NCBI GenBank assembly: GCA_965204735.1 | Contig: OZ242008.1 | Coordinates: 928,001-992,000 of the forward strand | Direction of reading: 5' to 3' | DNA from: Longimicrobiales bacterium | Lineage (GTDB): Bacteria; Gemmatimonadota; Gemmatimonadetes; Longimicrobiales; Gaopeijiaceae | Length of the DNA: 64,000 nt | Shown: piece by piece, positions 3,454-19,585 of the stretch | Numbering within the stretch: the stretch's first letter is position 1 | Layout: the number at the start of each line of letters is the position of its first letter | Notes under the pieces: generated by a model | The model's database searches: none | Seen by the model: only the letters and a program-made list of their open reading frames with translations | Told to the model about the DNA's origin: nothing | Program-made: the position numbers and the translations under genes

Positions 3454-3564
3454 CGTCTGCCGTGCCGGCGTCTCGCGCTTGCTGCCGGACGTGCGCGAGG
3501 GGCTGTTGGTGAGACAAGGTTCCGGCACATGGGCGACGAGTACTCGATCCTGTCCGAGAATCGA

Positions 3565-4338
3565 ATGAGACCGACAACGCTGTTCCTTGCGTGGCAGGAC
3601 AAGCGTGAACGGAGATGGTTTCCGGTGGGCAGGCTGGATGCCGATGGAGGACGTTCGCAGTACGTCTTCCGCTACACGCATGGTGCCGGCATCGCGAAGC
3701 GAGACAGCGGATTCGCCCCTCTGTACGACTTTCCTCGTCTCGAGGACGTATACGAATCTCGTCGTCTGTTCCCGCTGTTCGAGAATCGAGTCATGAACCG
3801 GGGAAGAAGAAGCTTTCGAGACTACCTCGAGCTCTTGGCCATCGAGAACCCCGACCCGGACCCATTGGAGATCTTGGCGATTGACGGGGGACGCCGAATG
3901 ACCGACAACTTCGAGGTGTTTCCGAAGATCGAGAAGAGCGACGACGGTGAGTTTCGTTGCCGCTTCTTGCTCCATGGCTCCCGGCACGTCAGCCGTCCGG
4001 CGCAGGAGCGGCTGCTCAGGCTGGCGGAAGGAGAACGGCTGCACGTGGCCCTCGAGCTTACCAATCCGGCCATGCCACTCGCGGTCCAGCTTCAAACCGA
4101 AGACTACCACATGATCGGGTGGGCGCCTCGATACTTGGTCGCCGACTTGGCCGAGGCGATGGCTCACGCCCCGACCGAGTACAAGGCCAATGTGGTCAGG
4201 ACCAGCACAGAGGCGCTGTTCAAGCACAGCGTGTTGATCGAACTGAGCGGCTGCTGGCCCGAAGAGCACGAGCCCATGTCGTCCGAGAGCTATCAGCTGC
4301 TGGGCGGGGACGAGGAGGACGCGCTTCCATGGACCTGA
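3565..4338 (+). CDS. HipA N-terminal-like/HIRAN domain DNA-binding protein
   Basis: 'LFLAWQD..RRWFPVGRL', 'YESRRLFPLFENRVM', 'DPLEILAIDGGRRMTDNFEVFP' and HIRAN-like C-terminus 'IGWAPRYL'. Start is ATG 3565 or 3529. Confidence 0.7.
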   Translation: MRPTTLFLAWQDKRERRWFPVGRLDADGGRSQYVFRYTHGAGIAKRDSGFAPLYDFPRLEDVYESRRLFPLFENRVMNRGRRSFRDYLELLAIENPDPDPLEILAIDGGRRMTDNFEVFPKIEKSDDGEFRCRFLLHGSRHVSRPAQERLLRLAEGERLHVALELTNPAMPLAVQLQTEDYHMIGWAPRYLVADLAEAMAHAPTEYKANVVRTSTEALFKHSVLIELSGCWPEEHEPMSSESYQLLGGDEEDALPWT

Positions 4339-5283: not shown

Positions 5284-8199
5284 TCAGTCATCATCGATCA
5301 GCCCGAGTTCCCGGAGCGGTTCCAGGACACCGTTTTCCAGCTTGGCCTTGTCGAGCGCACCTTTCGCCTCGACGTTGATGGAGATCCTGTCGGCCAAGGC
5401 CGCGAGGTTGGCGAGAGCGTTCCACGCGCCGTAGAGGGTGTCCCGATCTGCGCTGAACGAAAGAGCGACAGCGTCCGCATCCAGGGTGGCCGGCGTCGTC
5501 GAAGCACTTGGCTCGGGGCTGTCCGGCGTCTCGCGTACCAACCCGGTGCTGAGCTCGGGGCTCGACCAAAGTTCCGCTCCGTCAACAGCTTCGGGCTGAG
5601 CGGGAAGCGCGGCCGGGAGGATCAAGAACCCCGAATCGAGATCGATTTCGTCCTCGGCTACGCCGCGGTCGAAGGCGACTTGGCTCGTGTCGATTCGATA
5701 ACGGCCGTCCTCGCCAAGGGTCGGTCGGCCCGTGAAGTAGCCGAAGAAGCTGTTCTCGACGCCACGGGCGATGGCTCTGCGCACCACGTTGCCGGAAAGC
5801 AAGCGCGGGAAGCCAAGGAAGGAGAAGAACCCGGCAACCACCCGGGAGGTCGGAATTCCCGGCTCGGCGGATTCGACTTCTCCCAACCTGAACAGCTCGA
5901 CGATCTTCCCCGGTGCCACGTCTTCGAAGACTCTGCGGTGCACCATCGTCAGCAGCTCCATCATGCGATCGTGGATCCGGGCGCGCTTCTTCTCGTCGAG
6001 GGTCGTCTGGAGCGGCCGACCTCTCATGCCGACGGCGTCCAACGACAGCGAACCGCTGTCCGTCGTCGGCAGCCGGATTTCTTCGTACAACTTAAGCATC
6101 GCGGATTCGACCGCCGTTCTTTCGGTGGCGTCTCGTTCTCTGAGCTGACCCCTCTGCGCATCTGTAAGGTTGTGCTGCCGCCACCTCTGCAGGACCCGTT
6201 CGACGGCCGTCAGGTAGCGGACAGAGCGGCGAAGGCTCTCGACTTGGTCAGCCGACGGCACGGCGAGTCCAAGGCCATTGCGGAATTCGCGGGTACGGTT
6301 CCCGTGGTTCTCACAGAGATCTCTAGCTGTTTCTTTTTGCTCCCCCGTGGACTTGGCTGCGAACTCGAGCGGCAGATACGCGATCAGGAACCGAGATTCC
6401 TGGTCTGGTACGTCCGCCGATGTGGCCGGCCACACGATCGCCGAGCGCTGGCCCGCAAGCCTCTCTTCGATCAGCGTCTTTATCTTGGTCCTGATACGGC
6501 CCTCGTCCCGGCCCACCGCTTCGGCTTCCTGCTCGACCAGCAACGTGACGTTGGGGTCCCGCTTGAAGCAGTACCGAACGCCGTCGAAGTGCAGGTAGAG
6601 ACACTGTTCCTTGAGCTCCTTGAGACAGGCCTGAACGGTGGTGCTGTCGAGGTCTGGACCGACGCCGATGCTCAGCAGGTCGGGCTCGCTGATCCCGGGC
6701 GGCAACAGATCGCCGGCCGTGTCTTCCGAGCGGCGCAGGCCGCCGAAGGAATACATCAGCATGCATGTTGCCAGACGGGTAGCCGAGTGCTTGCCGGCCT
6801 CGGAGGTCACCTCCCGCGCGCGTCGGTCGTCGATCCGGCGGGTGCGAGCGTTTGTGCCGACGAAGTCATGCTCCAGACAAGCCTGAAAATCCTCCCGCTG
6901 TCCGACCTCTTTGAAGAAGGCGAGGCGTACATCCGCGTCGTGCACGGGAACGTCGCCCGGGCCGAGCAAGAGGCGCGAGCTGCCGGCACGGTGAGCAGCG
7001 CGCAGGCAGGAAGCGAGAAACCGCAGGGCACCGCGAGTTCTCTGGAAATCGGGAATGGCCGCCCAACGCTCCCGCATCACGTCGATCAGGGCCGGATGGA
7101 ATGGATAGGAAGACTGGATGCGATTCTGGAGCACCAAGCCGTCCTCTTCCGCCTGCTGCCGTTCCGACTCGCCGTGCGCTCGGGCGCGCCGCATCTGAGT
7201 GACTACGTCTCCGTAAGCCTTGGCGACGCTTCCCGCCACTTCCCGGTCCGGGGCTCCAGCCAGTAGCCGCCGCTGGATCACATTCAGGATCTCGTTGCCC
7301 TCGACGGGCTCCCGCCGCTGGTCCTTGCGCGCCGCGAGATGCTCCACTGTGCGGAGCAGGCCCGTGTACTCGAGGGATTCGCGGTTGCTCGACTGCAACG
7401 AGTATACGAGCACCGCGTTATCCACGTTGCCGACCGCGACCGTAAGGCGTTTCAGAAATGAAAGCGTCTCGTCCCGAAGGGTGGTCTGCTCGATGCGCAC
7501 CCCGCCAGCGCTAATGAGGTACTCCAGAACCTCGTCCAGGAGGATCAGGCTCGGGCCGTGCTTGAGCAGCTCGATGATCTGGTCTCCGCCTGGAGCAACT
7601 CGGCTATTGTCGTGCTCCCGGACGATCTCGTAGCCTTCCCGGCCCGCAAGTGCCCAAGCGATCCACCCCCAGACGGTCTTCGCGACGAAGCTCTCCTGCG
7701 GCACACGCTTTCCGACTCGAGCGTCAAAGAACTGCCCGTCGACGACTGCCACCCGTACTCCCTCCGGCCGCGGAAGTCCCGTTGCCTCCGGCAGTGCATC
7801 CAGGGCGGCCCTTGATCGGGCGCTGTGTAGCAGCGCGGCCAGCGTGTGCGACTTACCTCCGCCGAACGGTGTCAGCAACTTGAGCACGCGGTTGCCCTGG
7901 GAGCCTGCCAGCCGTCCCAGCACGTCCTCAAGCAGTGACTTCAGGCCGCCGGTAAGGTACGATGTCCCGAAGAAGCTGTCGGCGTCCCGGTAGACGACCG
8001 GAACACGTGGCAACGCCGAAGTCGGAACCTCGAGGTCCCTTCCTATCAGGTGGTCGGCCAGTGCCCCCAGGTCGAGTGCGAAGACGTCCTCCGAGAATTC
8101 TTCCGAGAGCACGTCAGGGTGCAGGTCTACGCATTGCAGCCAGGGTCGCCTAGCTACGTCCATGACTGTCGTTCTCCTGTGTTTAGGTTGGCTGGCCAT
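5284..8199 (-). CDS. DUF499 family AAA+ ATPase
   Basis: 971 aa. Walker A 'TPFGGGKSH', Walker B 'LILLDE', and DUF499 motifs 'FALDL', 'SYPFHPAL', 'FQRTRGALRFLA'. RBS AGGAGAGG upstream. Confidence 0.9.
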   Translation of the reverse strand: MASQPKHRRTTVMDVARRPWLQCVDLHPDVLSEEFSEDVFALDLGALADHLIGRDLEVPTSALPRVPVVYRDADSFFGTSYLTGGLKSLLEDVLGRLAGSQGNRVLKLLTPFGGGKSHTLAALLHSARSRAALDALPEATGLPRPEGVRVAVVDGQFFDARVGKRVPQESFVAKTVWGWIAWALAGREGYEIVREHDNSRVAPGGDQIIELLKHGPSLILLDEVLEYLISAGGVRIEQTTLRDETLSFLKRLTVAVGNVDNAVLVYSLQSSNRESLEYTGLLRTVEHLAARKDQRREPVEGNEILNVIQRRLLAGAPDREVAGSVAKAYGDVVTQMRRARAHGESERQQAEEDGLVLQNRIQSSYPFHPALIDVMRERWAAIPDFQRTRGALRFLASCLRAAHRAGSSRLLLGPGDVPVHDADVRLAFFKEVGQREDFQACLEHDFVGTNARTRRIDDRRAREVTSEAGKHSATRLATCMLMYSFGGLRRSEDTAGDLLPPGISEPDLLSIGVGPDLDSTTVQACLKELKEQCLYLHFDGVRYCFKRDPNVTLLVEQEAEAVGRDEGRIRTKIKTLIEERLAGQRSAIVWPATSADVPDQESRFLIAYLPLEFAAKSTGEQKETARDLCENHGNRTREFRNGLGLAVPSADQVESLRRSVRYLTAVERVLQRWRQHNLTDAQRGQLRERDATERTAVESAMLKLYEEIRLPTTDSGSLSLDAVGMRGRPLQTTLDEKKRARIHDRMMELLTMVHRRVFEDVAPGKIVELFRLGEVESAEPGIPTSRVVAGFFSFLGFPRLLSGNVVRRAIARGVENSFFGYFTGRPTLGEDGRYRIDTSQVAFDRGVAEDEIDLDSGFLILPAALPAQPEAVDGAELWSSPELSTGLVRETPDSPEPSASTTPATLDADAVALSFSADRDTLYGAWNALANLAALADRISINVEAKGALDKAKLENGVLEPLRELGLIDDD

Positions 8200-8215
8200 C
8201 GGTCCGACCCTCTCC

Positions 8216-11200
8216 TTACAGGAACCATGGCGTGTTCTCCAGCGACGGGTGCAGCTCGAACGGTTCCGACTGTCGCAAGAACGCCGCGGTCAAATAGGCG
8301 ATGTCCTTGGCGTACTTGAGTGTTATTGGCTCTCCACAAAACGCGTCGGTGGACGCCCAGTTCAGCTTCGTAAGGCTCAACACCTGAAGCGCCAGCACCC
8401 GCAAGTCCGGCCGACTGCCACGGTCGTTCGGTCTCTCAATCCATGCTGCTACCTCCAGTGGTCTTGCCGTCCCCATCATGCGACGAAACGGATTGTAACC
8501 TGTGGTGGACAGGTATAGCTTGTTGGTACCCACCTCAACGTAACTCCCTCGACGAAGGCTCCCATCCGTCTCCGGCCTATCATCGTAAAAGCGAACGTTG
8601 TGATGGGAATTGACCGAGACGAAAGCAAAGGTGCCCTCCGGGCGAACAGTTCGCGCCGATCGAAGAATCGCCTTCCGGTCGGCTCGTGCAAACTTCGCTG
8701 AATACTGGAACACCACGCGGGGAGTCGACGACAGTTGGGAATCTAGCCTCTTCAACACATCCTTGGCCAACTCGGCGAGGCGGAGATGTCGATCCTCAAA
8801 GTCAAAATAAGATGTGTTGCCCCGGTAAAACTCCCATCTTCCATATTGGTTGAACACGCTAGCAAAACCCATGATCCGACGGCCATCTCTGGACTGCGTG
8901 TAGGACAACCCCACAAAAAAATCCGCCTCTGGAATCGCATCCGGCAATACCCACGGCCGGACGCCGCACTTTGCACAAATGTTCAAGGCTAGATTCAGAT
9001 CTTTCCAATCTGGATTCTCAAGCGTTGGCGTGTCGACCATCTGACATGGTACGCCTCGTTCCAACAGCAGTCTCTTATTGACGTAGTACGGTGCCAGGTG
9101 GTCGTCTCGAGCATATCCCTCTTCGGGGGTATGGACAAGGAAAATGGATCTAGGATGAAGGTTGGCTCGACTCCTCTGTCGCTGATGCAAGAGACGTTCA
9201 AGTTCTGCATGAATATCATCAACATGGCTCACCGTAGCAATCCCCGAATACCAGAATTTTGTCGCAAACGTTCGTTCGGAGCCGCGATACTTGTACCGAC
9301 CTCCAATCAAACGTTCGATCAGGCCTTCCATTCCTTGACGGACTGCAGTCAGACAAACCGGTACAAGCTCAATCTCCTGTGGGTCATCGCCATAGGAGCC
9401 ATACTGTGTGATGCCGGCCCGGACATCCGGTGACAGCTGGCGCTGCCGAAACTCCACTTCCGGCTCTGGGAGTCGCCGAACGGTCAGTTCCTTTTCCGAA
9501 GGTCGCAGTCGTTCGGAAAGTCGAATCGGGTTGGTAGCGATATCGACGTCAAGATCGCAACATCGCAAAGGAAACAACTTGTCCGACAGATATTTCACGC
9601 TTGCCAGAATCTTTTGAGCCCTCTCCCTAGCGGAACCCGGTCTCGTAACCAAGCTATGCTCTCGAATCGCAGCGGCAAGATCGAACGACGGTTCCTCCTT
9701 GTGCAGCATAGACTTCAACATCTCCACAGTGCAAATGGGAATGACGTCACTGATAGGGATAGTTTCTACCGTGCCGGTGTCAAGGAATCGTACTTCCGCA
9801 AACTCATCGTTAAATCCAGACAGATGTCCCCTGCGCCACTGTCCATTGTTTGCTATGCAACGATGGCCATCAAGTCTGGCTCGTGCAAAATGCTGCTTCA
9901 CAACCGTGAGATTTCTTACGTTGAGAGCAACGCATCTGTAATCGATACACAAATAGAAGCGTTGACCATACTGCCGGACCTGAAATTCGTATGCCGGATA
10001 GAGTCGCACAATAGACCTCACCCCAACCGGTGTGCCGATCTCAGTGCGCCTCATGTGTGCAAGTATTCTGCTGAATCCATCTCGGTGTATGAACCATCCA
10101 TTTCCTTCTAACGCATCGCGAAGCGTTCGCACAAGCTGCCCATAACGTGATCCAAATACCTCATACCCTACCACGTTGTCCTGTTGCCGAAATCTCAACA
10201 GAAACAAATTGCTGAATTCCGTTGCGTTATCGTTGTTTGCCGCCGCTAGGAGCGCGGCTTCGCGCTCTTCCGCCCTGTTCTCAATCTGGATCAATGTCTC
10301 GTTCGAAAGGAGACGATATGAGGGAGCCGGCAACCCGAGGGTCTCCATCGCCGTAACCATCTGCTTCGTGCCCTCGCTAATGGCCTGCACATAGGCCACA
10401 CCACTCGGATCTCTCATTAGCTTCAGCCATTCTAGAAGCTTAGTATTCCTAGGCATCGAATCAAGTATGACGTCTGCCAACGAAAAACGCGGTGGTGGAT
10501 CAGTGTCTCGCTGAATTATCCGGCCTGGATTCTTCACCACGAATGCATCCGTGTACGCCTCGCATTCAATCGGCACCCCGGTTCGATAGTCCCTATGCGC
10601 TAAGGCGTTCACGAGTGCTTCGTCAATGACGGTATAAGGAAATTCGGGCTCTTCGACGAAGCCACCGGTTGGCCGTCGCTTTTGATAGCGCTTAAAGAAT
10701 GCGGACTCTCTGAAGAATGTCCTCGCCTCCCGGATCTGTTTCGTAACCGGACCTGTGAATTTTTGATCGAATGTCGGGAGACCACGTCTGGCATGGTCGT
10801 TGACCACCACTCCAAACCGCATTAGGCGAATGTGAGCTGCCGGAAGGACACGTTGCGGATTTGATCCAAAGAACAGAAGTCCGGCATATGTAAACCAATA
10901 GTCGTCATCGCGGCGAACCAATGCACCTGCCTCATAGAGCAGTCGTTCATCCGAGAAGCGTCTGGTTGCATCGGGGGAAAACACCTTGCGAAATTCTTTC
11001 AGAACGTCATCCGAAAGATCTGCAGGATCGTAGGGGCAGCAGAACGCGTTCTCGAAGTCGGTAAGGTTTTTTCTGTCCCGAAGCCGATCACGCATCGCCT
11101 GCGTGACCAGGACGTTTTGAGGTCCGCGTCGCTCCCAAGCCTTCGGCCTAGCCCGAAGCGTCTCGCAAATGGCATTGGTCGCATAGGGGGCAAATAACAG

Positions 11201-11701
11201 ACAAATAGTGTTGCTTTGGTCGGAATCATCGCGACATTCGTAAAGTCTAGCTTCGACGGCCTGATTGTGAAGGAGGCTCCCAATGTCAGTGAGGCTGTTT
11301 TTCTGACCTTCTGTCAGGTGGTTGACGCCTGCGACGTTGCCGTTGGACTCAATTCCGATCACCAGCAACCCACCTCTAACGTTGCTGTTGGCGAAGGCCG
11401 AAATGGTCTCGGTGATTCCGTCCCGGAGCTTCTTCAGTTGGTTTGTGAGCTCCCTGGGAGGGCTCCCCTTGCGGCCCGCAGCCTTACGATCGAAGTGCTG
11501 GCCCTCGAAATCGTCATCCGAGGACTGGGTCAAGAAGCCCCAGTGACTTGCGGGATCGTCGTAGACTGCCCGTGGGGAGGGTTCCATCAGCACTTCCTCT
11601 TCGTGGGACGCCCAAGACGGCAGAGCCGGAATCGCCCAAAGGTTGCGGGCTTGGCCGTGCGTTTCCACCACCGGCGGTTCGCCGCTCTCATCGGTCGTCA
11701 T
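8216..11701 (-). CDS. ago: Schlafen/AlbA_2 + HATPase_c_4 fused to a long prokaryotic Argonaute (MID-PIWI, predicted slicer-inactive)
   Basis: AlbA_2 motifs 'EGQHFDRK' and 'ISAFANSNVRGGLLVIGI'; HATPase_c_4 motifs 'EALVNALAHRDY', 'VKNPG', 'PRN'; L2 'LPEPEVEF..GITQYG'; MID 'YYVNK..GVPCQMV..NLALNICAKCGVRPWVL'; PIWI 'FFVGLSY', 'LTKLNW', 'PITLKYA'. Start is ATG 11701 (overlapping the methylase end) or 11587. Confidence 0.88.
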   Translation of the reverse strand: MTTDESGEPPVVETHGQARNLWAIPALPSWASHEEEVLMEPSPRAVYDDPASHWGFLTQSSDDDFEGQHFDRKAAGRKGSPPRELTNQLKKLRDGITETISAFANSNVRGGLLVIGIESNGNVAGVNHLTEGQKNSLTDIGSLLHNQAVEARLYECRDDSDQSNTICLLFAPYATNAICETLRARPKAWERRGPQNVLVTQAMRDRLRDRKNLTDFENAFCCPYDPADLSDDVLKEFRKVFSPDATRRFSDERLLYEAGALVRRDDDYWFTYAGLLFFGSNPQRVLPAAHIRLMRFGVVVNDHARRGLPTFDQKFTGPVTKQIREARTFFRESAFFKRYQKRRPTGGFVEEPEFPYTVIDEALVNALAHRDYRTGVPIECEAYTDAFVVKNPGRIIQRDTDPPPRFSLADVILDSMPRNTKLLEWLKLMRDPSGVAYVQAISEGTKQMVTAMETLGLPAPSYRLLSNETLIQIENRAEEREAALLAAANNDNATEFSNLFLLRFRQQDNVVGYEVFGSRYGQLVRTLRDALEGNGWFIHRDGFSRILAHMRRTEIGTPVGVRSIVRLYPAYEFQVRQYGQRFYLCIDYRCVALNVRNLTVVKQHFARARLDGHRCIANNGQWRRGHLSGFNDEFAEVRFLDTGTVETIPISDVIPICTVEMLKSMLHKEEPSFDLAAAIREHSLVTRPGSARERAQKILASVKYLSDKLFPLRCCDLDVDIATNPIRLSERLRPSEKELTVRRLPEPEVEFRQRQLSPDVRAGITQYGSYGDDPQEIELVPVCLTAVRQGMEGLIERLIGGRYKYRGSERTFATKFWYSGIATVSHVDDIHAELERLLHQRQRSRANLHPRSIFLVHTPEEGYARDDHLAPYYVNKRLLLERGVPCQMVDTPTLENPDWKDLNLALNICAKCGVRPWVLPDAIPEADFFVGLSYTQSRDGRRIMGFASVFNQYGRWEFYRGNTSYFDFEDRHLRLAELAKDVLKRLDSQLSSTPRVVFQYSAKFARADRKAILRSARTVRPEGTFAFVSVNSHHNVRFYDDRPETDGSLRRGSYVEVGTNKLYLSTTGYNPFRRMMGTARPLEVAAWIERPNDRGSRPDLRVLALQVLSLTKLNWASTDAFCGEPITLKYAKDIAYLTAAFLRQSEPFELHPSLENTPWFL

Positions 11702-14492
11702 CCTCCAGGGCGAGTTCCGTCTGTCCGAAGATAGGGCCTTCGCTCTCTCGATCATAAGCGGCCCCTTCAACGACACTTCGCCAATTGGCGTTCAGCTTGG
11801 AGAGGGCGCGCAACTCGGTGGTCGTGGTCGCGTCCTGCGCCTCGGGGCGTGAAAGCACTGGCGCACAGAGTGCCTGAGTGACCAACCGGAGCTGCTCCTG
11901 GCTCGGTCGCGCCGACTTCAGGAACTCCCGGACCTGGATCGGCCGGTGGTCGAGCAACCAGAGCAGCCGGTGGATGACGTCGATTAGCGGGGCCTGTCGG
12001 CCGTTCGTACTGATGCCCAGCCCGTCGTCGCTACCGCGCTCCTCGAAGGTCCGGACGCGGAATTTGCTCCTGGACTTCTCGACCAGGCACGGAGGGGGGC
12101 CGGAGAGCCCCTGTGGACCGTCGATCTCGATGCCCTGCGGATAGCAGAACACGTACGCGTCGCCGGCCTGGATGAGGGATTCACGATAGGTAAACCTCCA
12201 TAGGACGTAGAAGCGCGTCTCTGGGTCCACGGAGCCGACGGCTGCTCCACGCAAACCGAAGATCTCGTCAAGCATGACATCAAGTACGACGCCCTCGACG
12301 TCGCGGAGGTAGAGTTCGGCGGGCACGATTTCGCCGTTGGCGTACTCGACCTTGGCGAACCGCGTGTAGGCACGCAGGCCCGCGCCGACCGCAGCCATAA
12401 GGAGGTCTGCACCTCCAATTCCCTTGCCTCCCGCCCATAGGGTCGTCACGCGTTCGCGTGCGATGTGGAGAAGCTCCGGCTTTACCTGTGCCTCGTACCG
12501 CCCGGTCTCGGTCGTTTCGCGGCGGCGAGCGACGAAAAAGATGCTGTCGGAAAGCGCGGCGGCACCGAGCGCGTTGACCCTTCCTCGAGACTCCGTCTGC
12601 ACCGGCCATGCCTCGGTGACCGTGAGCCCCGCCCCAACTAGCGCACGAATCAATGTGGCCCATCCCTCCGTCGTTCGGTGGGCGTAGACGCAGACCAGTG
12701 GGGCACCCGGCTTCAGGACGCGACGGGCTTCTGCGAACGAGCGGCGCATCATGTCTTGATAGTGCATGTTCGCCTTCTTTGCGTCCCCGCCGTGCTCGCT
12801 CGGCTGTGCGACCGCCTCGCGCCGCTTGGGCGGCACAGGCAACGTGAAGTGCTCGGGGTAGAGATCACCGACGATGCGCTTCAGCCATACGTAGAAGAAC
12901 GCGGACAGATCCGCGTAGTATATGCTGCTATAGTACGGCGGGTCGGTGACCACCGCGTCGAAGGTCTCGTCGTTGTAGAACAGCTTTTCCGCGTTGCCGC
13001 GCGCAACAACCGATGGCTGGCCGACCTTGGCGAGCTCTCGAATACAGTACGCTTCCCGGTCCAGCGCGAAGGGGAGGCAGCCCTGGGTGTGCGCTAACCC
13101 ATTGATCTCTGAGAAATCGTAAATCATCTTCAGGGCTTGCCGATCACCAATAGCTCCTATCGTCCTCTGCACTCTGGGCTCCCACCGAGAGAACTTGTTG
13201 AATGTGACGACGAAACGGCCGAACGCCATCGCGAAATAGGTCGACAGCGCTCGTGCCCGGTCCTCGGCCATACCCTCCTTCAGCATTTCGGCGTGGGCCT
13301 GTCGAATGTTTTTGATCAGGGTCAACAGGACCAGTAGCTGTCGAGGCGTGAATAGTTCGCGATACGTATTCACTCCATAGTTAGGAAGTTGGTCACCAAG
13401 TTTCCCTTGAAGCATACCACCAGGAGGCTCACAACCGAGTTCCCCCTCAAGCTTCTCCAAACGCTGCTCTATCTCGTCCGCCGGCAACTCTACCGTGACA
13501 TCCGGGGGCAAGTATACTTTGGTTCGCCTTTTCCTCGATTTACCTTCTGGCGGCAACGAAACCACTACGGCAGCAAGCGATTCTTTCATCCTGTCGACTG
13601 TCGCCATTTCCTTGACGTGATCGGCAGGGGCAGGTGTATTGCATGCGACGCAGACCGCTTGTCCCGCGCCAGTCTGCGCCTCTTGTTGGGAGACTTCTCG
13701 GATGGACGCACCGGAAACGATGTCCCAGCAAAGTCGGTTGCCATCTTCGATTTGGGGAACAGCGGCAACGGCTCCGTTCTTCTTGCGTAGCCAAGCTTGG
13801 CGAACGAGCGGCACCGACGTGCCGCATCCCGGCCGACGACAGGGCACAGTGCGCGCCCAGATGCAAGCGATCAGGGTTGCTTCGCGCGACGGAGTGGGTG
13901 AATCTGATGTCCGGTTTCCGAAGAGGGTGATCTGGGAAGCGACCGCGTCCGATTCAGGTATCCGGACGTCTGGGTAAAGGTCGCCAACATCCTTCTTCAC
14001 GCGTTCGAGGACAACCCGACCCCAGTGTTCGAAGTCGTCGGCCAACTTCGGTCCGAACGTCTGTGGATACGCTAGCGTACATAGTTCGATCAGGTGGGCT
14101 ACCGGGTTGTAGTCGAGCGCGTGGCTCTCGCAACCGAGACGGGCGGCCTCGAGCGGAATCGCACCTCCGCCCGCAAATGGGTCCAGCACCTTCGGCGTCC
14201 GGCCACCGTGCGCCTCCAGGATGTGTCTGCGAGCCTTCTTGACGACTTCCGGATCCGGCTTGAACGCAGCGAGGTTGGCAACGAAAGACGCGGCTTCCCT
14301 ACGCTCGTCGTCCGATTCCGGCGCAGCGACTAGGGCGGCGTAGACCGCGGCGCGCGATGCGGTGATCGGACGGCGAGCGGGCCAGTAGTGGATCATCTCC
14401 ACGTATCGCCGGGGATGCAGCTTCTCGTGGGATGCGATGGCGTTGAGCGCGTCAAGAGGAAGGTAGTCCTCGATCAGTCGGCGGTCATCCAT
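11688..14492 (-). CDS. DUF1156 family adenine-specific DNA methyltransferase
   Basis: 'RLIEDYLPL', 'HYWPARRP', SAM-binding 'LDPFAGGGAIP', Zn-ribbon cysteines and catalytic 'TDPPYY'. ATG 14492 overlaps the helicase stop; 14504 is an alternative start. Confidence 0.92.
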   Translation of the reverse strand: MDDRRLIEDYLPLDALNAIASHEKLHPRRYVEMIHYWPARRPITASRAAVYAALVAAPESDDERREAASFVANLAAFKPDPEVVKKARRHILEAHGGRTPKVLDPFAGGGAIPLEAARLGCESHALDYNPVAHLIELCTLAYPQTFGPKLADDFEHWGRVVLERVKKDVGDLYPDVRIPESDAVASQITLFGNRTSDSPTPSREATLIACIWARTVPCRRPGCGTSVPLVRQAWLRKKNGAVAAVPQIEDGNRLCWDIVSGASIREVSQQEAQTGAGQAVCVACNTPAPADHVKEMATVDRMKESLAAVVVSLPPEGKSRKRRTKVYLPPDVTVELPADEIEQRLEKLEGELGCEPPGGMLQGKLGDQLPNYGVNTYRELFTPRQLLVLLTLIKNIRQAHAEMLKEGMAEDRARALSTYFAMAFGRFVVTFNKFSRWEPRVQRTIGAIGDRQALKMIYDFSEINGLAHTQGCLPFALDREAYCIRELAKVGQPSVVARGNAEKLFYNDETFDAVVTDPPYYSSIYYADLSAFFYVWLKRIVGDLYPEHFTLPVPPKRREAVAQPSEHGGDAKKANMHYQDMMRRSFAEARRVLKPGAPLVCVYAHRTTEGWATLIRALVGAGLTVTEAWPVQTESRGRVNALGAAALSDSIFFVARRRETTETGRYEAQVKPELLHIARERVTTLWAGGKGIGGADLLMAAVGAGLRAYTRFAKVEYANGEIVPAELYLRDVEGVVLDVMLDEIFGLRGAAVGSVDPETRFYVLWRFTYRESLIQAGDAYVFCYPQGIEIDGPQGLSGPPPCLVEKSRSKFRVRTFEERGSDDGLGISTNGRQAPLIDVIHRLLWLLDHRPIQVREFLKSARPSQEQLRLVTQALCAPVLSRPEAQDATTTTELRALSKLNANWRSVVEGAAYDRESEGPIFGQTELALEDDDR

Positions 14493-17400
14493 GATCCATG
14501 TCATCCGGTCTCCCGCAAACCTCTGCCTGATCCACCGTCTCCTGATCGAAAGCGGCCTGTTCCACAGCCCTTGCCGGGAGATCATAGTATCGTGCGGCCA
14601 CGACCTCCTTCTTGGCGTAGTCCAAGTGCTTGGCGGGGTTCTGGATCATCAGCGGAGTCGGGTCCGGGTTGTCCAACGGATCCCAGACGACATAAAGCCA
14701 GTAGGTGTCGGCGAGCTGTTGCGCCTTGTACCACTCGTTGGTGGTCAGCCGGACGGGCTGGCCGCGTTGTCGGCCCTTGACCTCGATGCGGCGCACACCG
14801 GTCACAGGGTCCCGGTAGCCCGTCTGTGGGTCCGGCGGCGCCAGGCTTCGAACGTCGAAGCCGATCTTCTGGTGCCCGACCCGCTCGCACTCGCGGCCCT
14901 GGGCCTCCTCATAGGCGACGACAACGTCCTCCGCGGCAACCTCGACCCGCTGCGTCAACGCCGGGTCGGGTTCCTCTCTGAATACGAGGGCGCGCTCCGT
15001 ATCCGTGTCGGGAGGCAGTACCAAGCAGCTCGCTATGTGCCGCACGGGACCGTGCCGGGCGATGCGAAGCCGCTCAATACCGGCCAGGCGCTCCTCCTGT
15101 GTGCGTTGCAGATCGGCAAGATCCTGTTCCGCACGCTGACGTGCCAGCGTTACTTCCGGCTCTTTTGGCTCCCGGGCCCGTAGCCCCATCACCCGATCCT
15201 GCGAGGCACGGGCACGAGCGGCGAAAGACTTCTCGAGATAGTCGCGCGCTACTTCCGCATAGTGGCCGCGTTCGGCCTGGGCGTCTCGCCGCCGCTGCAT
15301 CTGGATCGTCGCCTTGACATAGTCGCCGACGAGGCCTTGGTCGATCCCGGGCAAGGTCACGGACGGACTCGGATGGGCAGGCAGATCGATGAGCGCGTCC
15401 GGCGGCACTGTGCTGAAACGATCCGCAACGGCGATATCTTCGCCGCCCTCCTCCCGCACGGCCACCAGCTCGGAATGTATCGTCGTCGCCTCGCCCTTGG
15501 TGTTCTGGCCCTGTACTGGAATCTCGTAGAAATGGAGACGGTAGGGAGATTTCCCGTGCGGGTCCACGTACACGGCCGTCTGGCCCGCAAGCCGCTCGCC
15601 AAGGCTGTCTTGCAACCTCTCGTCCACGGCGGCGTAGAGCGGATGTCCGGGACCGACGAGTACGGCGTCAAGGTGCCGATCCTGCTCCAGGTGCTCCTTG
15701 TAGAAGGTCAGCTTGCGGTAGCTCGCCTCGGGCTTCCCATGGCGCCGGACCGCGGCAAGGCGCTCGGAGCGGAGCTCGGCGCGCACGTGCTCGATCCGCC
15801 AGAGTCCGTCCGCTCTTGGCTCTGTCCGCAGGCCCACCGCCCTGGCAGCGTTCAAGAAGTGGGATTCGACATAGCGAGGCATGAGCCGCCGCTCCTCCGT
15901 TTCCAAGTTTGCCCGTGCGAAGGACGAAAAATCTACGTGGGCGCGGGCCAATGCAATCCCAGTCGCGTCTTCGTACAGATCGAGCTGCTTCGGATCGATC
16001 CGCTCAATCGCATCGAGATAGTCGTCGAGGCGGCGCGGCTCATAGGCCACCTCCCGAAGCATTTCCGGCAGGTTGACCTTGTTCAGGGAGAGCACTTCGC
16101 CGACGACGTCGAACACTCGATCGCCGAGCGCATCCCGCATCCGGTTCAACTTGCTCAGCAGGCGCTCCAGAATACGTCCTTCGATGACTGGCTGACCGTC
16201 CTGCGACGAAGTGGCGACGAAATTGAAGGCGTACACATCGCGAGACTGCCCGATGCGGTGGATGCGGCCAAGTCGCTGTTCGAGACGGGTTGGGTTCCAA
16301 GGCAGATCGTAGTTGACCATCAGGTGACAGAACTGGAGGTTGATGCCCTCTCCGGCGGCCTCCGTCGCCACGCAGATCTGGCGGCTAGTTCGGAAATCTT
16401 CTTGAGCCTGCTTGCGCTCGTGCGGGTTCATCCCGCCGTGAATTTCGCATGTCGAATACCCCCAGGACTCGAGATGGCTCCTCAGGTGGTTCAGCGTGTC
16501 CCGGTGCTCGGTGAAGATAAGGAGCTTACCGCGTCCGTCCTTCAGTTCGTCGAATTCCGTTCGTTCCAGGCACTCGCGCAATGCGACGAGCTTGGAATCG
16601 AGGCCGCCTTCGCGCAATCGGCCTACGCTCGTCGCGAGGTCCCGTAGCGCCGCGACCTCGGCCCGTAGCTGACCCAAGGCGAGGGCCGCTGTAGTCTCGT
16701 CGATGAGACAATCGCGAGATGCGTCGTCGAGGTCGTCTTCGTCCTGTTCTACGTCGGCAACTTGACCTGATGCCTGCGCGAGTCGTCTCGCCCGCTGGGC
16801 AGGGGGCAAGTTGTCGAGTTCGTCAACCAATTCTCTTAGCCGTGTTCGACGACGAATCAGCGATTCGTGAATTGCGCGGGTAGAGCTGGCCAAGCGACGT
16901 TGAAATACCGTGCGCACGAGAGCGACGCTGTTCTTTCGCCTTCCGGTCGTTTGTGGAAGGAACTCATTGATGTATGCCGTTACCGCCTTGTAAACCGCGT
17001 ACTCTTGTTCGCTGAGCGCAAAGCTGACCGTGTGTACGTGGCGGTCCGCAAACAACCGACGCCCATGCAGGTCCTTGAGGTCTTCCTTGAGCCGTCGAAG
17101 CGACCACGGGCAATCTTGGCCGAGTTGTAGTACATCGCGTCGAACATGAGCGGCTTCTTCGCCTACGCGATGGGGTTCGGGGAACAGGTCCCGGTCGATA
17201 AGCCGGATGAAGTGTGCGAACCGGTCATCGTCACCGTGATGAGGCGTGGCTGTCAAGAGCAGCAGGTGGTCGCAATGTTCGGAGAGCCGCTCGGCGAGCT
17301 GGTAGCGCTTCGTGCGCTCAATCCCGTCCCCGCGACCGGTGGAGTACTTGGTACGAGCACTGCACTTGTGGGCTTCGTCGATGATGACGAGGTCCCAGTG

Positions 17401-18120
17401 CTGCCGCCACACGCGCTCCCGCACCTCGTCCCGCTTGGCGTAGTCGATGGAAGACACGATCTGCGTCTCTCGCTCCCATAGGTTTAGGAACTGCTGCTGG
17501 TCGTTCGCGGAGTGAACGACCTGGAACGTTTCATTGAAGAAGCGGAGTAGCTCGTCCTGCCACTGAATGGTCAACGGTGCCGGAACGAGGATCAGGCAAC
17601 GCTCGACGGCCTCTCGGAGCTTGAGTTCCTTGATGAGAAGGCCGGCCATGATCGTCTTCCCCGCGCCCGGATCGTCGGCGAGCAGGAAACGCAGGCGCGG
17701 CTGTGGTAGCATCCTACGGTAAACCGCGTCGATTTGATGAGGCAGAGTGCGGATGCCGGAAAGGCTGACCGCAAAGTGACGATCGAAGGTGTACGCCAAG
17801 CGGATACGAGCCGATTCGATCAAGAGCCGCATCTCCTCGGGATCGGCGGGTTGCGCCGCAGCGACTTCCCGTGGGTGATCACCCGACGCTACAGCAGCGG
17901 CGGCTTCCTCCGAAGAGATGATGGCCTCTTCAAGCGCTCCGTCGGGCAGGCGCACCCGGCATTCGTAGCCGGCGGAATCAGGTGCCGCAAGCGTTCTGAC
18001 GTCTTCGAGGACGACAGGTACATCGAAGTGCCCCGGTAGCGAGAGTCGTCGTCCGACCCATTCCGACAACTGGGCCTTCGTCTTCCCGTTCGTCTCGTTC
18101 TTGAGTGCCTGTAGCGTCAT
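14485..18120 (-). CDS. SNF2-family helicase with C-terminal DUF3883/NOV-like PD-(D/E)xK nuclease
   Basis: 'LLADDPGAGKT', 'IIDEAH', 'LTATPH', 'TEAAGEGINLQ', 'QRLGRIHRIGQ'; C-terminal 'GFDVRS...RIEVKGR...LTTNEW..YWLYVV'. Start is approximate. Confidence 0.92.
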   Translation of the reverse strand: MTLQALKNETNGKTKAQLSEWVGRRLSLPGHFDVPVVLEDVRTLAAPDSAGYECRVRLPDGALEEAIISSEEAAAAVASGDHPREVAAAQPADPEEMRLLIESARIRLAYTFDRHFAVSLSGIRTLPHQIDAVYRRMLPQPRLRFLLADDPGAGKTIMAGLLIKELKLREAVERCLILVPAPLTIQWQDELLRFFNETFQVVHSANDQQQFLNLWERETQIVSSIDYAKRDEVRERVWRQHWDLVIIDEAHKCSARTKYSTGRGDGIERTKRYQLAERLSEHCDHLLLLTATPHHGDDDRFAHFIRLIDRDLFPEPHRVGEEAAHVRRDVLQLGQDCPWSLRRLKEDLKDLHGRRLFADRHVHTVSFALSEQEYAVYKAVTAYINEFLPQTTGRRKNSVALVRTVFQRRLASSTRAIHESLIRRRTRLRELVDELDNLPPAQRARRLAQASGQVADVEQDEDDLDDASRDCLIDETTAALALGQLRAEVAALRDLATSVGRLREGGLDSKLVALRECLERTEFDELKDGRGKLLIFTEHRDTLNHLRSHLESWGYSTCEIHGGMNPHERKQAQEDFRTSRQICVATEAAGEGINLQFCHLMVNYDLPWNPTRLEQRLGRIHRIGQSRDVYAFNFVATSSQDGQPVIEGRILERLLSKLNRMRDALGDRVFDVVGEVLSLNKVNLPEMLREVAYEPRRLDDYLDAIERIDPKQLDLYEDATGIALARAHVDFSSFARANLETEERRLMPRYVESHFLNAARAVGLRTEPRADGLWRIEHVRAELRSERLAAVRRHGKPEASYRKLTFYKEHLEQDRHLDAVLVGPGHPLYAAVDERLQDSLGERLAGQTAVYVDPHGKSPYRLHFYEIPVQGQNTKGEATTIHSELVAVREEGGEDIAVADRFSTVPPDALIDLPAHPSPSVTLPGIDQGLVGDYVKATIQMQRRRDAQAERGHYAEVARDYLEKSFAARARASQDRVMGLRAREPKEPEVTLARQRAEQDLADLQRTQEERLAGIERLRIARHGPVRHIASCLVLPPDTDTERALVFREEPDPALTQRVEVAAEDVVVAYEEAQGRECERVGHQKIGFDVRSLAPPDPQTGYRDPVTGVRRIEVKGRQRGQPVRLTTNEWYKAQQLADTYWLYVVWDPLDNPDPTPLMIQNPAKHLDYAKKEVVAARYYDLPARAVEQAAFDQETVDQAEVCGRPDDMDHG

Positions 18121-18166
18121 TTGGGCGTGTGATTGGCCAGGAGACAATCCAAGACAGCACGTCAAG

Positions 18167-18195
18167 ATACTACTAGGGAACACGCCGGATGTCCA
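18167..18195 (-). promoter_or_regulatory. Putative sigma70 promoter for the defence operon
   Basis: Minus strand reads TGGACA-N17-TAGTAT, about 45 nt upstream of ATG 18120. Confidence 0.55.
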
Positions 18196-18490: not shown

Positions 18491-19585
18491 TCAGACGAAG
18501 CGGTAGAGCCTTACGTCCAGGGACCGCGTCGCCCGTTCGGCGTCCCGCCACTGGACCATGATCGGGCTCTGGTAGGTGCCGCTGGGGATCACGCTGGTTC
18601 CGTCGCCGGCGAGGTCGAGCACAGGGAGGCTGATCTGCCGCTTCATGCGCAGGAAGTGGGAGACGGGGACCGCCAGCGCCCGATTCACGATCCGCTCCAC
18701 GACCGACCTGCGCACGCCCATTCGATCCAGCAGCGTGTTGAGGACCTGCACGGCGTCGAACTGGGCGTAGTTGAGGGTCTTGGCGGGAATGGCCCGGGGG
18801 TCCCGCAAGGCGTTTCGGCCTCGCTCGGCCATGAACCGCAGGGGATCCGCCAGCACTTCCCGCAGGTCGTGCGTCATGAGCAGCGTTTCGTACTCGTTGA
18901 CCGTCAAGCCGGCGTTCCGCTCGTCGGGCGCGAGGGAGACGTCGAGTCGGCCGAAGGACACTCCGTGAGCTTGCGCAAGCTTCCGCAGCTCTTCCATGAC
19001 CCCGAGGTTCGGGTCCCGCAGGTTGCATGCGTCGAGGGCGTGGGACGGCGCCTCCACGTCCAGGGTCAGGCGGGCGACTTCGGTCTCGCCGCCGTAGGCC
19101 ACCACCGTGGTGCGCCGGCGTCTCGTTCCCGCGTCGTGGACCCCGTCGAGCTCCACGAACCACACCGGGTCGTCCCGCTGCTCGTAGGACACGCAGTTCT
19201 TCAGCCCCGCGCCGATGAAGGTGAGGTGCGAGTCGGCGTTCTTGGGCTCGTTGGCCCGCTGCTCCTCCGACAACTCGGTGCGCAGGTGAAGCTTGTCGTG
19301 GACGTAGCCGGCGTCCGGCGGAAAGAGCTTGCGGAAGACCTGGAGGAACTCCTGCACGTTCTCGTCGTCGTGCTCCAGCCTCTCGGCGATCCGCTGGTCC
19401 AGGTAGCCCGCCGTCGTGTGGTCGGAGACGTAGAGCGCCTTGGGGAACTGGGTGAAGCTGCTCCCGAACTCCTTGGCCAGGCTTCCCCGCACGTCGATCA
19501 GCTCGATCCGCGACGAAGGCTTGATTCGCAGGACGGCCTGGAACGGACCGTTGCCCGACGAGCTGCGGTGCTCCAGCTCAATCAC
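18491..19585 (-). CDS. YjbQ/UPF0047-like protein, apparently two tandem domains
   Basis: 'HTTAG', 'YVHD', 'NADSHL', 'FVELDG' in the first half; 'NAGLTVNE' and 'GTYQS' in the second half. GTG start. Confidence 0.6.
   Translation of the reverse strand: MIELEHRSSSGNGPFQAVLRIKPSSRIELIDVRGSLAKEFGSSFTQFPKALYVSDHTTAGYLDQRIAERLEHDDENVQEFLQVFRKLFPPDAGYVHDKLHLRTELSEEQRANEPKNADSHLTFIGAGLKNCVSYEQRDDPVWFVELDGVHDAGTRRRRTTVVAYGGETEVARLTLDVEAPSHALDACNLRDPNLGVMEELRKLAQAHGVSFGRLDVSLAPDERNAGLTVNEYETLLMTHDLREVLADPLRFMAERGRNALRDPRAIPAKTLNYAQFDAVQVLNTLLDRMGVRRSVVERIVNRALAVPVSHFLRMKRQISLPVLDLAGDGTSVIPSGTYQSPIMVQWRDAERATRSLDVRLYRFV

Follow-up and report, generated by a model that had tools for sequence, protein, structure and literature searches.

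The 64,000-nucleotide stretch of contig OZ242008.1 analysed here (the window), from the Longimicrobiales bacterium assembly GCA_965204735.1, carries on its minus strand a gene for a 1123-amino-acid protein. In this single chain a Schlafen domain and a GHKL ATPase are fused to an Argonaute that is slicer-dead and probably of the long-B type. As its residue map and tree position indicate, the protein belongs to the SLFN-pAgo family, which has already been characterised, and is not a new kind of system. We consider it very probable that it is an intact anti-phage protein working like RzAgo, the type member of the family from Runella zeae (Kuzmenko et al., May 2026 preprint; bioRxiv 10.64898/2026.05.29.728809, cited here from the part of its text available to us), and that an Hma operon carries it as an autonomous passenger. 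The gene and the parts of its product are the following, with residues counted from the methionine at 11587 (the 1123-residue form):

8216..11587, minus strand: SLFN-pAgo gene, 1123 amino acids; upstream the frame continues without a stop to ATG 11701 and GTG 11776
11111..11503, minus strand: Schlafen (AlbA_2) nuclease domain, from Pfam PF04326, SLFN11 fold matches and the residue map
11506-11483, minus strand: E28-x4-D33-x-K35 nuclease motif, reading E28-GQHF-D33-R-K35
11401-11387, minus strand: SAFAN box, S63-A-F-A-N67, complete
Within the Schlafen domain: K52/K53, and E80/S81 at or adjoining the position of RzAgo D72
10238..10840, minus strand: GHKL (Bergerat-fold) ATPase, from Pfam PF13749 below its cut-off, a histidine-kinase fold match, and E323 and N327
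9488..10225, minus strand: L1, PAZ (SH3/Tudor-like) and L2 region, lacking a full N domain; approximate boundaries
8945..9415, minus strand: MID domain with the 5'-phosphate pocket Y834, K838, Q849 and K873, boundaries approximate; isolated MID-domain fold matches
8219..8938, minus strand: inactive PIWI domain with S895, S963 and K1094 at the Asp positions of the DEDX tetrad

The original prediction, made from the letters alone, had placed a Schlafen/AlbA_2 domain and a HATPase_c_4 domain N-terminally, and both assignments hold. The SLFN_AlbA_2 family (PF04326) matches above its Pfam cut-off (E 8.4e-9). HATPase_c_4 (PF13749, E 1.7e-4) reaches 22 bits and remains below the cut-off of 26, but the GHKL assignment is kept because the fold agrees and because E323 and N327 are invariant in 166 of 166 aligned rows. 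The motifs quoted earlier were found at their places, both in the N-terminal part (EGQHFDRK at 11506, SAFAN at 11401, DEALVNA at 10624) and in MID and PIWI (YYVNKR at 9088, CQMV at 9046, CAKCG at 8977, FFVGLSY at 8920, QYSAK at 8707). The MID pocket, described as intact with the pattern Y-K-Q-K, is conserved at all four residues (Y834, K838, Q849, K873) throughout the same 166 rows. When aligned with Aquifex Ago, the aspartates of 'GIDIS', 'HRDG' and 'YSDK', which we take to be the DEDX positions, correspond to S895, S963 and K1094, and an aspartate occurs in these columns in 0/166 family rows. The alignment is unreliable at the Glu-finger position, and the comparison covers the three Asp positions. 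Judged by these residues the PIWI slicer site is dead and has no catalytic tetrad, in agreement with the earlier claim.

An AlphaFold2 model built on a 110-sequence alignment (pLDDT 83.7) gives a MID-PIWI fold, the structural check that had been proposed. The closest structural match to residues 455-1123 is RsAgo, a long-B Argonaute of Rhodobacter sphaeroides (PDB 6D8A, 5AWH), with Z 31.2 and a root-mean-square deviation (rmsd) of 4.4 over 616 aligned residues. RsAgo also lacks the catalytic tetrad; it differs in possessing an N domain and in having no fused Schlafen-GHKL part. Residues 2-441 match the Schlafen-GHKL ('Schlatpase') protein DIP2311 (PDB 3LMM; Z 20.4, rmsd 18, 355 aligned), and the Schlafen domain matches the C-lobe (188-345) of human SLFN11 (residues 3-148; Z 9.7, rmsd 3.3, 127 aligned) and pig SLFN11 (Z 10.5, rmsd 4.4, 136 aligned). 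Unlike the protein described here, these Schlafen-GHKL proteins and mammalian SLFN11 carry no Argonaute sensor. Residues 250-450 match a histidine-kinase ATP domain (Z 8.6, rmsd 3.8, 117 aligned), and the L1/PAZ/L2 region has a weak Tudor match in Pfam, below the cut-off. The earlier reading of an N/L1/PAZ-like/L2 region stands for L1, PAZ and L2. It does not stand for the N domain: a full canonical one is not supported by the model, because residues 455-1123 (669 amino acids) span RsAgo 20-777 (758 amino acids) and are thus about 90 amino acids shorter, and because no indel longer than 7 amino acids separates the protein from RzAgo, whose cryo-EM structure has no N domain. A remnant with beta-alpha-beta-beta topology is modelled at residues 457-512.

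The minus-strand frame is uninterrupted from 8219 to 11701 and would give 1161 amino acids from ATG 11701, the start assumed in the original prediction. ATG 11587 is probably the true start, because 103 of 109 aligned homologues begin at its column, a GAGGA lies 7 nucleotides upstream, and the PADLOC model PDLC02394 starts there as well; ATG 11701 was rejected on the homologue starts. With 1123 amino acids (1161 from 11701) the protein fits the range of 1071-1187 given for SLFN-pAgos. The locus is no assembly artefact: in three runs, which come from two studies, hmaB, the gene and hmaC are bridged by single contigs that differ in 0, 16 and 23 letters (X2, X4 and X5; sponge metagenome is the label of two rows, and X2 is possibly close to the source and not independent). 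Among the public runs listed as containing the gene there was no RNA run, which tells nothing about expression. The 8 variants between strains that are listed for the gene comprise 5 silent and 3 missense changes and no stop. The ratio of nonsynonymous to synonymous substitutions (dN/dS) is about 0.10 against the homologues of loci L002 and L003, with synonymous sites near saturation. As far as these substitutions tell, the gene is intact and under purifying selection.

Fusions of AlbA_2 to several long-B pAgos were noted in the survey of Ryazansky et al. 2018 (10.1101/366930), in the accessible part of which Schlafen is treated as a DNA-binding domain and no mechanism is given. The whole fusion was already modelled in the 2023 library of PADLOC-DB 2.0, where the pAgo model PDLC02394 (1121 positions) covers the protein end to end with 1547.6 bits. 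The Kuzmenko preprint then defined SLFN-pAgos as a set of 78 long-B proteins that carry SLFN and GHKL domains, lack the tetrad and have no partner conserved among them. RzAgo is reported there to use 5'-A RNA guides against single-stranded DNA (ssDNA) targets; the guide induces filaments, the target disassembles them and ATP drives the formation of tetramers. Cleavage of tRNA depends on D32, and phage protection is obtained in a heterologous host without a partner. Mutations of D32, E314 and Y828/K832 abolish tRNA cleavage, ATP hydrolysis and guide binding, respectively, and Y1086 contacts the 5'-adenine (bioRxiv 10.64898/2026.05.29.728809). The mechanism suggested in the original prediction, an inactive pAgo that senses a guide-matched target and activates tRNA cleavage by Schlafen, is thus published for RzAgo, both in vitro and in vivo, with the tested residues kept here, and the statement that no settled mechanism was known is out of date. 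The GHKL ATPase had been seen; its role as tetramer switch, the inhibitory filament held by the guide, the lack of an N domain and the Hma operon had been missed. A categorically new system is rejected, as the protein matches this published family.

RzAgo was identified as P0307 (WP_028663822.1) from a Bacteroidota-side alignment, from the residue numbers published for it, 10 of 11 of which fitted in three proteins, and then from clusters. The two proteins are colinear over their full length and 38% identical (434/1138 aligned columns), with the same domain order, and a residue map over 166 full-length rows links the tested positions. D32, K34 and K46 of RzAgo correspond to identical residues D33, K35 and K52; E314 and N318 of the ATPase to E323 and N327; and Y828, K832 and Y1086 of the guide pocket to Y834, K838 and Y1098. 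The E(x)4(D/E)xK motif and the SAFAN box are complete. In a MID-PIWI tree, the 46 Schlafen-fused rows lie on one side of a branch with 99% SH-aLRT support and 22 unfused pAgos on the other; the protein shares with RzAgo a 99% subclade of 38 rows. This placement, a check suggested earlier, comes from a quick tree of 68 rows (34 hand-picked full-length matches, 11 loci, the query and the 22 unfused pAgos). A probable long-B placement follows the best fold match, RsAgo, and agrees with the preprint, which places the SLFN-pAgo clade in long-B.

Some related fusions stand beside these results. P0163 (1199 amino acids) has a pAgo near the SLFN-pAgos in the tree, and an N-terminal ADP-ribosylglycohydrolase (Pfam E 4.4e-41) replaces the Schlafen-GHKL part. 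In P0158 and P0159 the Schlafen-GHKL module is joined to a type I restriction specificity subunit, a combination also given in the Kuzmenko preprint, and in P0180 to leucine-rich repeats.

A complete Hma operon surrounds the gene on the same strand, with hmaB on one side and hmaC on the other, and the gene is presumably co-transcribed with the hma genes:

14485..18183, minus strand: hmaA, SNF2 helicase with C-terminal NOV_C nuclease (PADLOC HmaA E 5.3e-189; Pfam SNF2, Helicase_C, NOV_C)
11688..14585, minus strand: hmaB, DUF1156 DNA methyltransferase (PADLOC HmaB E 8.6e-108; Pfam DUF1156, N6_N4_Mtase); its start is likely 14492
11587..11691, minus strand: mini open reading frame of 34 codons joining the hmaB stop to the pAgo start, read from its translation and overlapping stop/start codons
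8164..8177, minus strand: ribosome site before hmaC; it resembles the hmaB 3' end and is a possible, weak remnant of a downstream repeat
5284..8163, minus strand: hmaC, DUF499 ATPase (PADLOC HmaC E 1.1e-95); the frame is open to ATG 8199, and ATG 8163 is where L002 and L003 start in the alignment

Gene set and order (SNF2 helicase-nuclease, DUF1156 methylase and DUF499 ATPase on one strand, with HmaA, HmaB and HmaC as best PADLOC matches) are those of the Hma/DUF499 BREX-related type-1 system, in the arrangement hmaA-hmaB-[passenger]-hmaC as far as the accessible parts of its descriptions show (PMC8565338; bioRxiv 10.1101/2024.01.29.577857; PMC11232893; PMC12839542). Embedded unrelated passengers are reported in 62.7% of Hma systems (bioRxiv 10.1101/2024.01.29.577857) and in about 66.5% of Hma loci (PMC11232893), and the significance of the embedding was said to remain unexplored in the former source. 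Its main text names no Argonaute or Schlafen passenger, and that of the SLFN-pAgo preprint does not mention an Hma operon, in which our protein differs from RzAgo; the supplements of either may list one. Within the window there was no Rfam match, and promoter-like sites (2 against 2.6 expected) and terminator-like sites (6 against 11.9 expected) showed no excess over chance.

According to the RzAgo mechanism, which we propose here because the residues tested in RzAgo are kept, an RNA guide in the MID pocket would recognise invader DNA. The guide would hold the protein in an inhibitory filament that target binding disassembles, the GHKL ATPase would act as an ATP switch driving tetramer formation, and the Schlafen domain of the tetramer would cut host tRNAs, leading to abortive infection. 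Several points weigh against this transfer. The RzAgo mechanism rests on one preprint, and two proteins sharing 38% identity may differ in the guides they prefer, in their filament contacts and in the tRNAs they cut. RzAgo K47 and R1094 are not kept (Q1106 stands for R1094), and D72 aligns with S81, next to E80, in a register uncertain by one residue. The outgroup of the quick tree came from the same search and is no labelled long-A/long-B set.

The D72 column bears on a further reading, that the sensor is the same and the output different, the subclade Schlafen cutting rRNA or mRNA or having a higher basal activity, which we regard as unlikely. D72 of RzAgo is probably both a metal-binding acid and a restraint on activity: the D72A mutant is hyperactive and lowers phage transcripts about 100-fold in the available text of the preprint. 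The protein here probably has Ser at this place, and it has the canonical E28 where RzAgo has H27. The column is not conserved family-wide, with S in 104/166 and D in 34/166 rows. Against a changed output, the protein retains K52, the SAFAN box and the core residues D33/K35, the part of D72 could be taken over by E80, and tRNA cleavage was shown by a family member, RzAgo itself. That the gene is decayed or non-defensive has in its favour a low GC content, a sporadic distribution and the broken copies in relatives L006, L007, L012 and L013 (frameshifts, a large internal deletion and insertions); the open frame, the catalytic residues, the low dN/dS and the mostly silent variants make this highly improbable.

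It would also be conceivable that the protein is wired to its host system as a back-up, with the HmaA helicase/nickase producing ssDNA targets, or with a block of Hma unleashing the RNase, in the manner of PrrC in type I restriction operons. The common strand and the overlapping stop/start codons fit such a coupling, as do the reports, in the accessible parts of the sources, that HmaA nicks supercoiled DNA (PMC11232893) and that BREX and Hma-type loci have Schlafen-ATPase genes as their back-up effectors (PMC12839542). Furthermore, relatives lie in or beside DNA-modification systems in 11 of 19 scanned loci (type I restriction-modification 4, type III methylase 3, and type IIG, DISARM, DndB and Hma 1 each; 63 of the 95 listed neighbours were submitted, and the hsdM of L009 was added separately). 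We nevertheless give this coupling little chance, given that the partner system differs from locus to locus, a 72%-identical relative (L001) has no Hma, RzAgo protects without a partner, and 62.7% of Hma systems hold passengers that are unrelated. Only 2 of 37 relative loci, many of them short metagenome loci, show the same hmaB-gene-hmaC placement (L002, L003), and 1/37 has the gene downstream of hmaC (L044). A dedicated Hma partner as a rule of the family is rejected, as placement and partner vary among the loci. Both the coupling and the different output can coexist with an RzAgo-like protein. The simplest reading of the context is an autonomous passenger, because few relatives lie in Hma operons, the preprint reports no conserved partner, and protection was obtained in a heterologous host.

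We infer that the gene arrived by horizontal transfer, because its GC content of 53.5% is below that of the hma genes (62-64%) and of the whole genome (69.3%), because it occurs sporadically and because its nearest relatives (72-77%) are found in metagenome-assembled genomes of Alpha- and Gammaproteobacteria. A full-length match was present in 1 of 401 genomes of the phylum, its own (9 others matched the N-terminal part only); none of the 3 further genomes examined from the genus had it. Further defence genes accompany some relatives: a Gabija system lies inside the Hma operon of L003 (987-4960), IetAS follows hmaC in L002 (16534-20131), and in two Poribacteria loci (L010, L011, about 8100-9900) a HEC-03-like pair and an SLFN-pAgo stand between hsdM and hsdS.

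The two loci with the same placement also bear on how the gene may have entered the operon. L002 and L003 both show a complete hmaB, followed by a 5' piece of hmaC, the pAgo gene, a 3' piece of hmaB and a complete hmaC, so that the hmaB/hmaC junction is directly repeated (245 bp, 89%, and 266 bp, 92%, respectively):

L002, 9720-9964 and 13486-13729: direct repeats of the junction
L003, 9507-9770 and 13457-13722: direct repeats of the junction
L041 (an unrelated locus), about 9782-9907 and 13385-13512: direct repeat of the 3' end of the preceding gene, with a 128 bp copy after the gene

The two repeat copies of one genome resemble each other more (89.6%, 90.0%) than copies from different genomes do (79-85%), a pattern consistent with separate insertions or with homogenisation at a later time. 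In the window, the first 27 nucleotides of the mini open reading frame, from the ATG overlapping the hmaB stop, match the hmaC start of L002 at 19/27 positions (15/23 after the shared ATGA, binomial p about 5e-4) and look like a decayed hmaC start. Downstream copies of hmaA or hmaB 3' ends were found for 8 of 40 genes (26 stretches, 25 Hma-like loci), against 4 of 260 control genes (6/260 if long copies are counted) sampled from the 850 available long genes of one genome, its own. The criteria for this count were set after seeing the data, and the loci were fetched by hand, are partly kin and include two found via the pAgo itself; outside it are hmaC-only stretches, L044, a fragmented locus, a locus of the own genome, and hmaA genes that were uncalled or on the opposite strand. 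Its p-value is accordingly treated as descriptive. Short copies of hma gene ends or starts lie inside the passenger interval in L072, L075, L076, L088, L094 and L096 (also L085 and L087).

On this basis we put forward, as a tentative idea that we ourselves hold to be doubtful, that passengers enter Hma-like operons by a single crossover which duplicates the end of a flanking gene, and that the passenger here acts as a hair-trigger back-up. A circle composed of the hmaC start, the SLFN-pAgo gene and the hmaB end would integrate at the hmaB/hmaC junction and leave both host genes whole and translationally coupled, and recombination between the repeats would excise or amplify the passenger. The RNA-guided tRNase, naturally without the D72 restraint, would be fed by ssDNA made by HmaA. 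Several observations argue against entry of this kind. The repeats of the window are decayed to short remnants; in 22 of the 26 loci tested no copy of an upstream gene's end or start lies beside the gene; and L075, L088 and L094 look like plain tandem duplications of hma genes. In these 26 loci, repeats hug the gene in L002, L003 and L041, the hsdM start is copied over 38 bp in L009, and the repeats of L013 are distant. A joint skipping the gene was not listed in the contigs of 4 runs, which drop rare variants. An empty hmaB-hmaC site was not found in a close relative (G002 gave only a 92% hmaC fragment), and a class-wide search for one around G443 gave one other match, on a 2.6 kb contig. The main text of bioRxiv 10.1101/2024.01.29.577857 does not mention junction repeats, and the junction duplication at Hma passengers is the sole lead of this analysis that we did not find in print.

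Other genes of the neighbourhood and genome were noted in passing. About 1 kb beyond hmaC lies a HIRAN-domain gene (3529-4338, plus strand; PADLOC candidate PDC-M03B, E 1.4e-76), which has a 46% paralogue elsewhere in the genome, and upstream of hmaA a 364-amino-acid gene (18491-19585, minus strand) with a weak UPF0047 match (E 0.0028). The genome holds four more helicase/methylase/DUF499 loci with passenger intervals of several kb (G000:C1, about 232-246, 647-675, 1790-1811 and 3004-3028 kb) and 8 further Schlafen-GHKL matches.

The SLFN-pAgo family is larger than the 78 proteins catalogued, because all 120 matches listed, which do not include RzAgo, are 51-100% identical over 83-100% of the protein. 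A 52%-identical full-length homologue beside a Tn3 transposase on a plasmid of Rubrobacter radiotolerans (L071, NZ_CP007517.1:43992-47408) offers a practical source from a cultured organism. The junction repeats provide a testable route for the embedding of passengers in Hma operons and, if the crossover proposal were true, would point to a general, integrase-free route for the unexplained embedding of defences. The subclade itself represents a natural test of the D72 restraint and of the H27/E28 difference, a question that bears on SLFN-pAgos as programmable DNA-triggered RNases.

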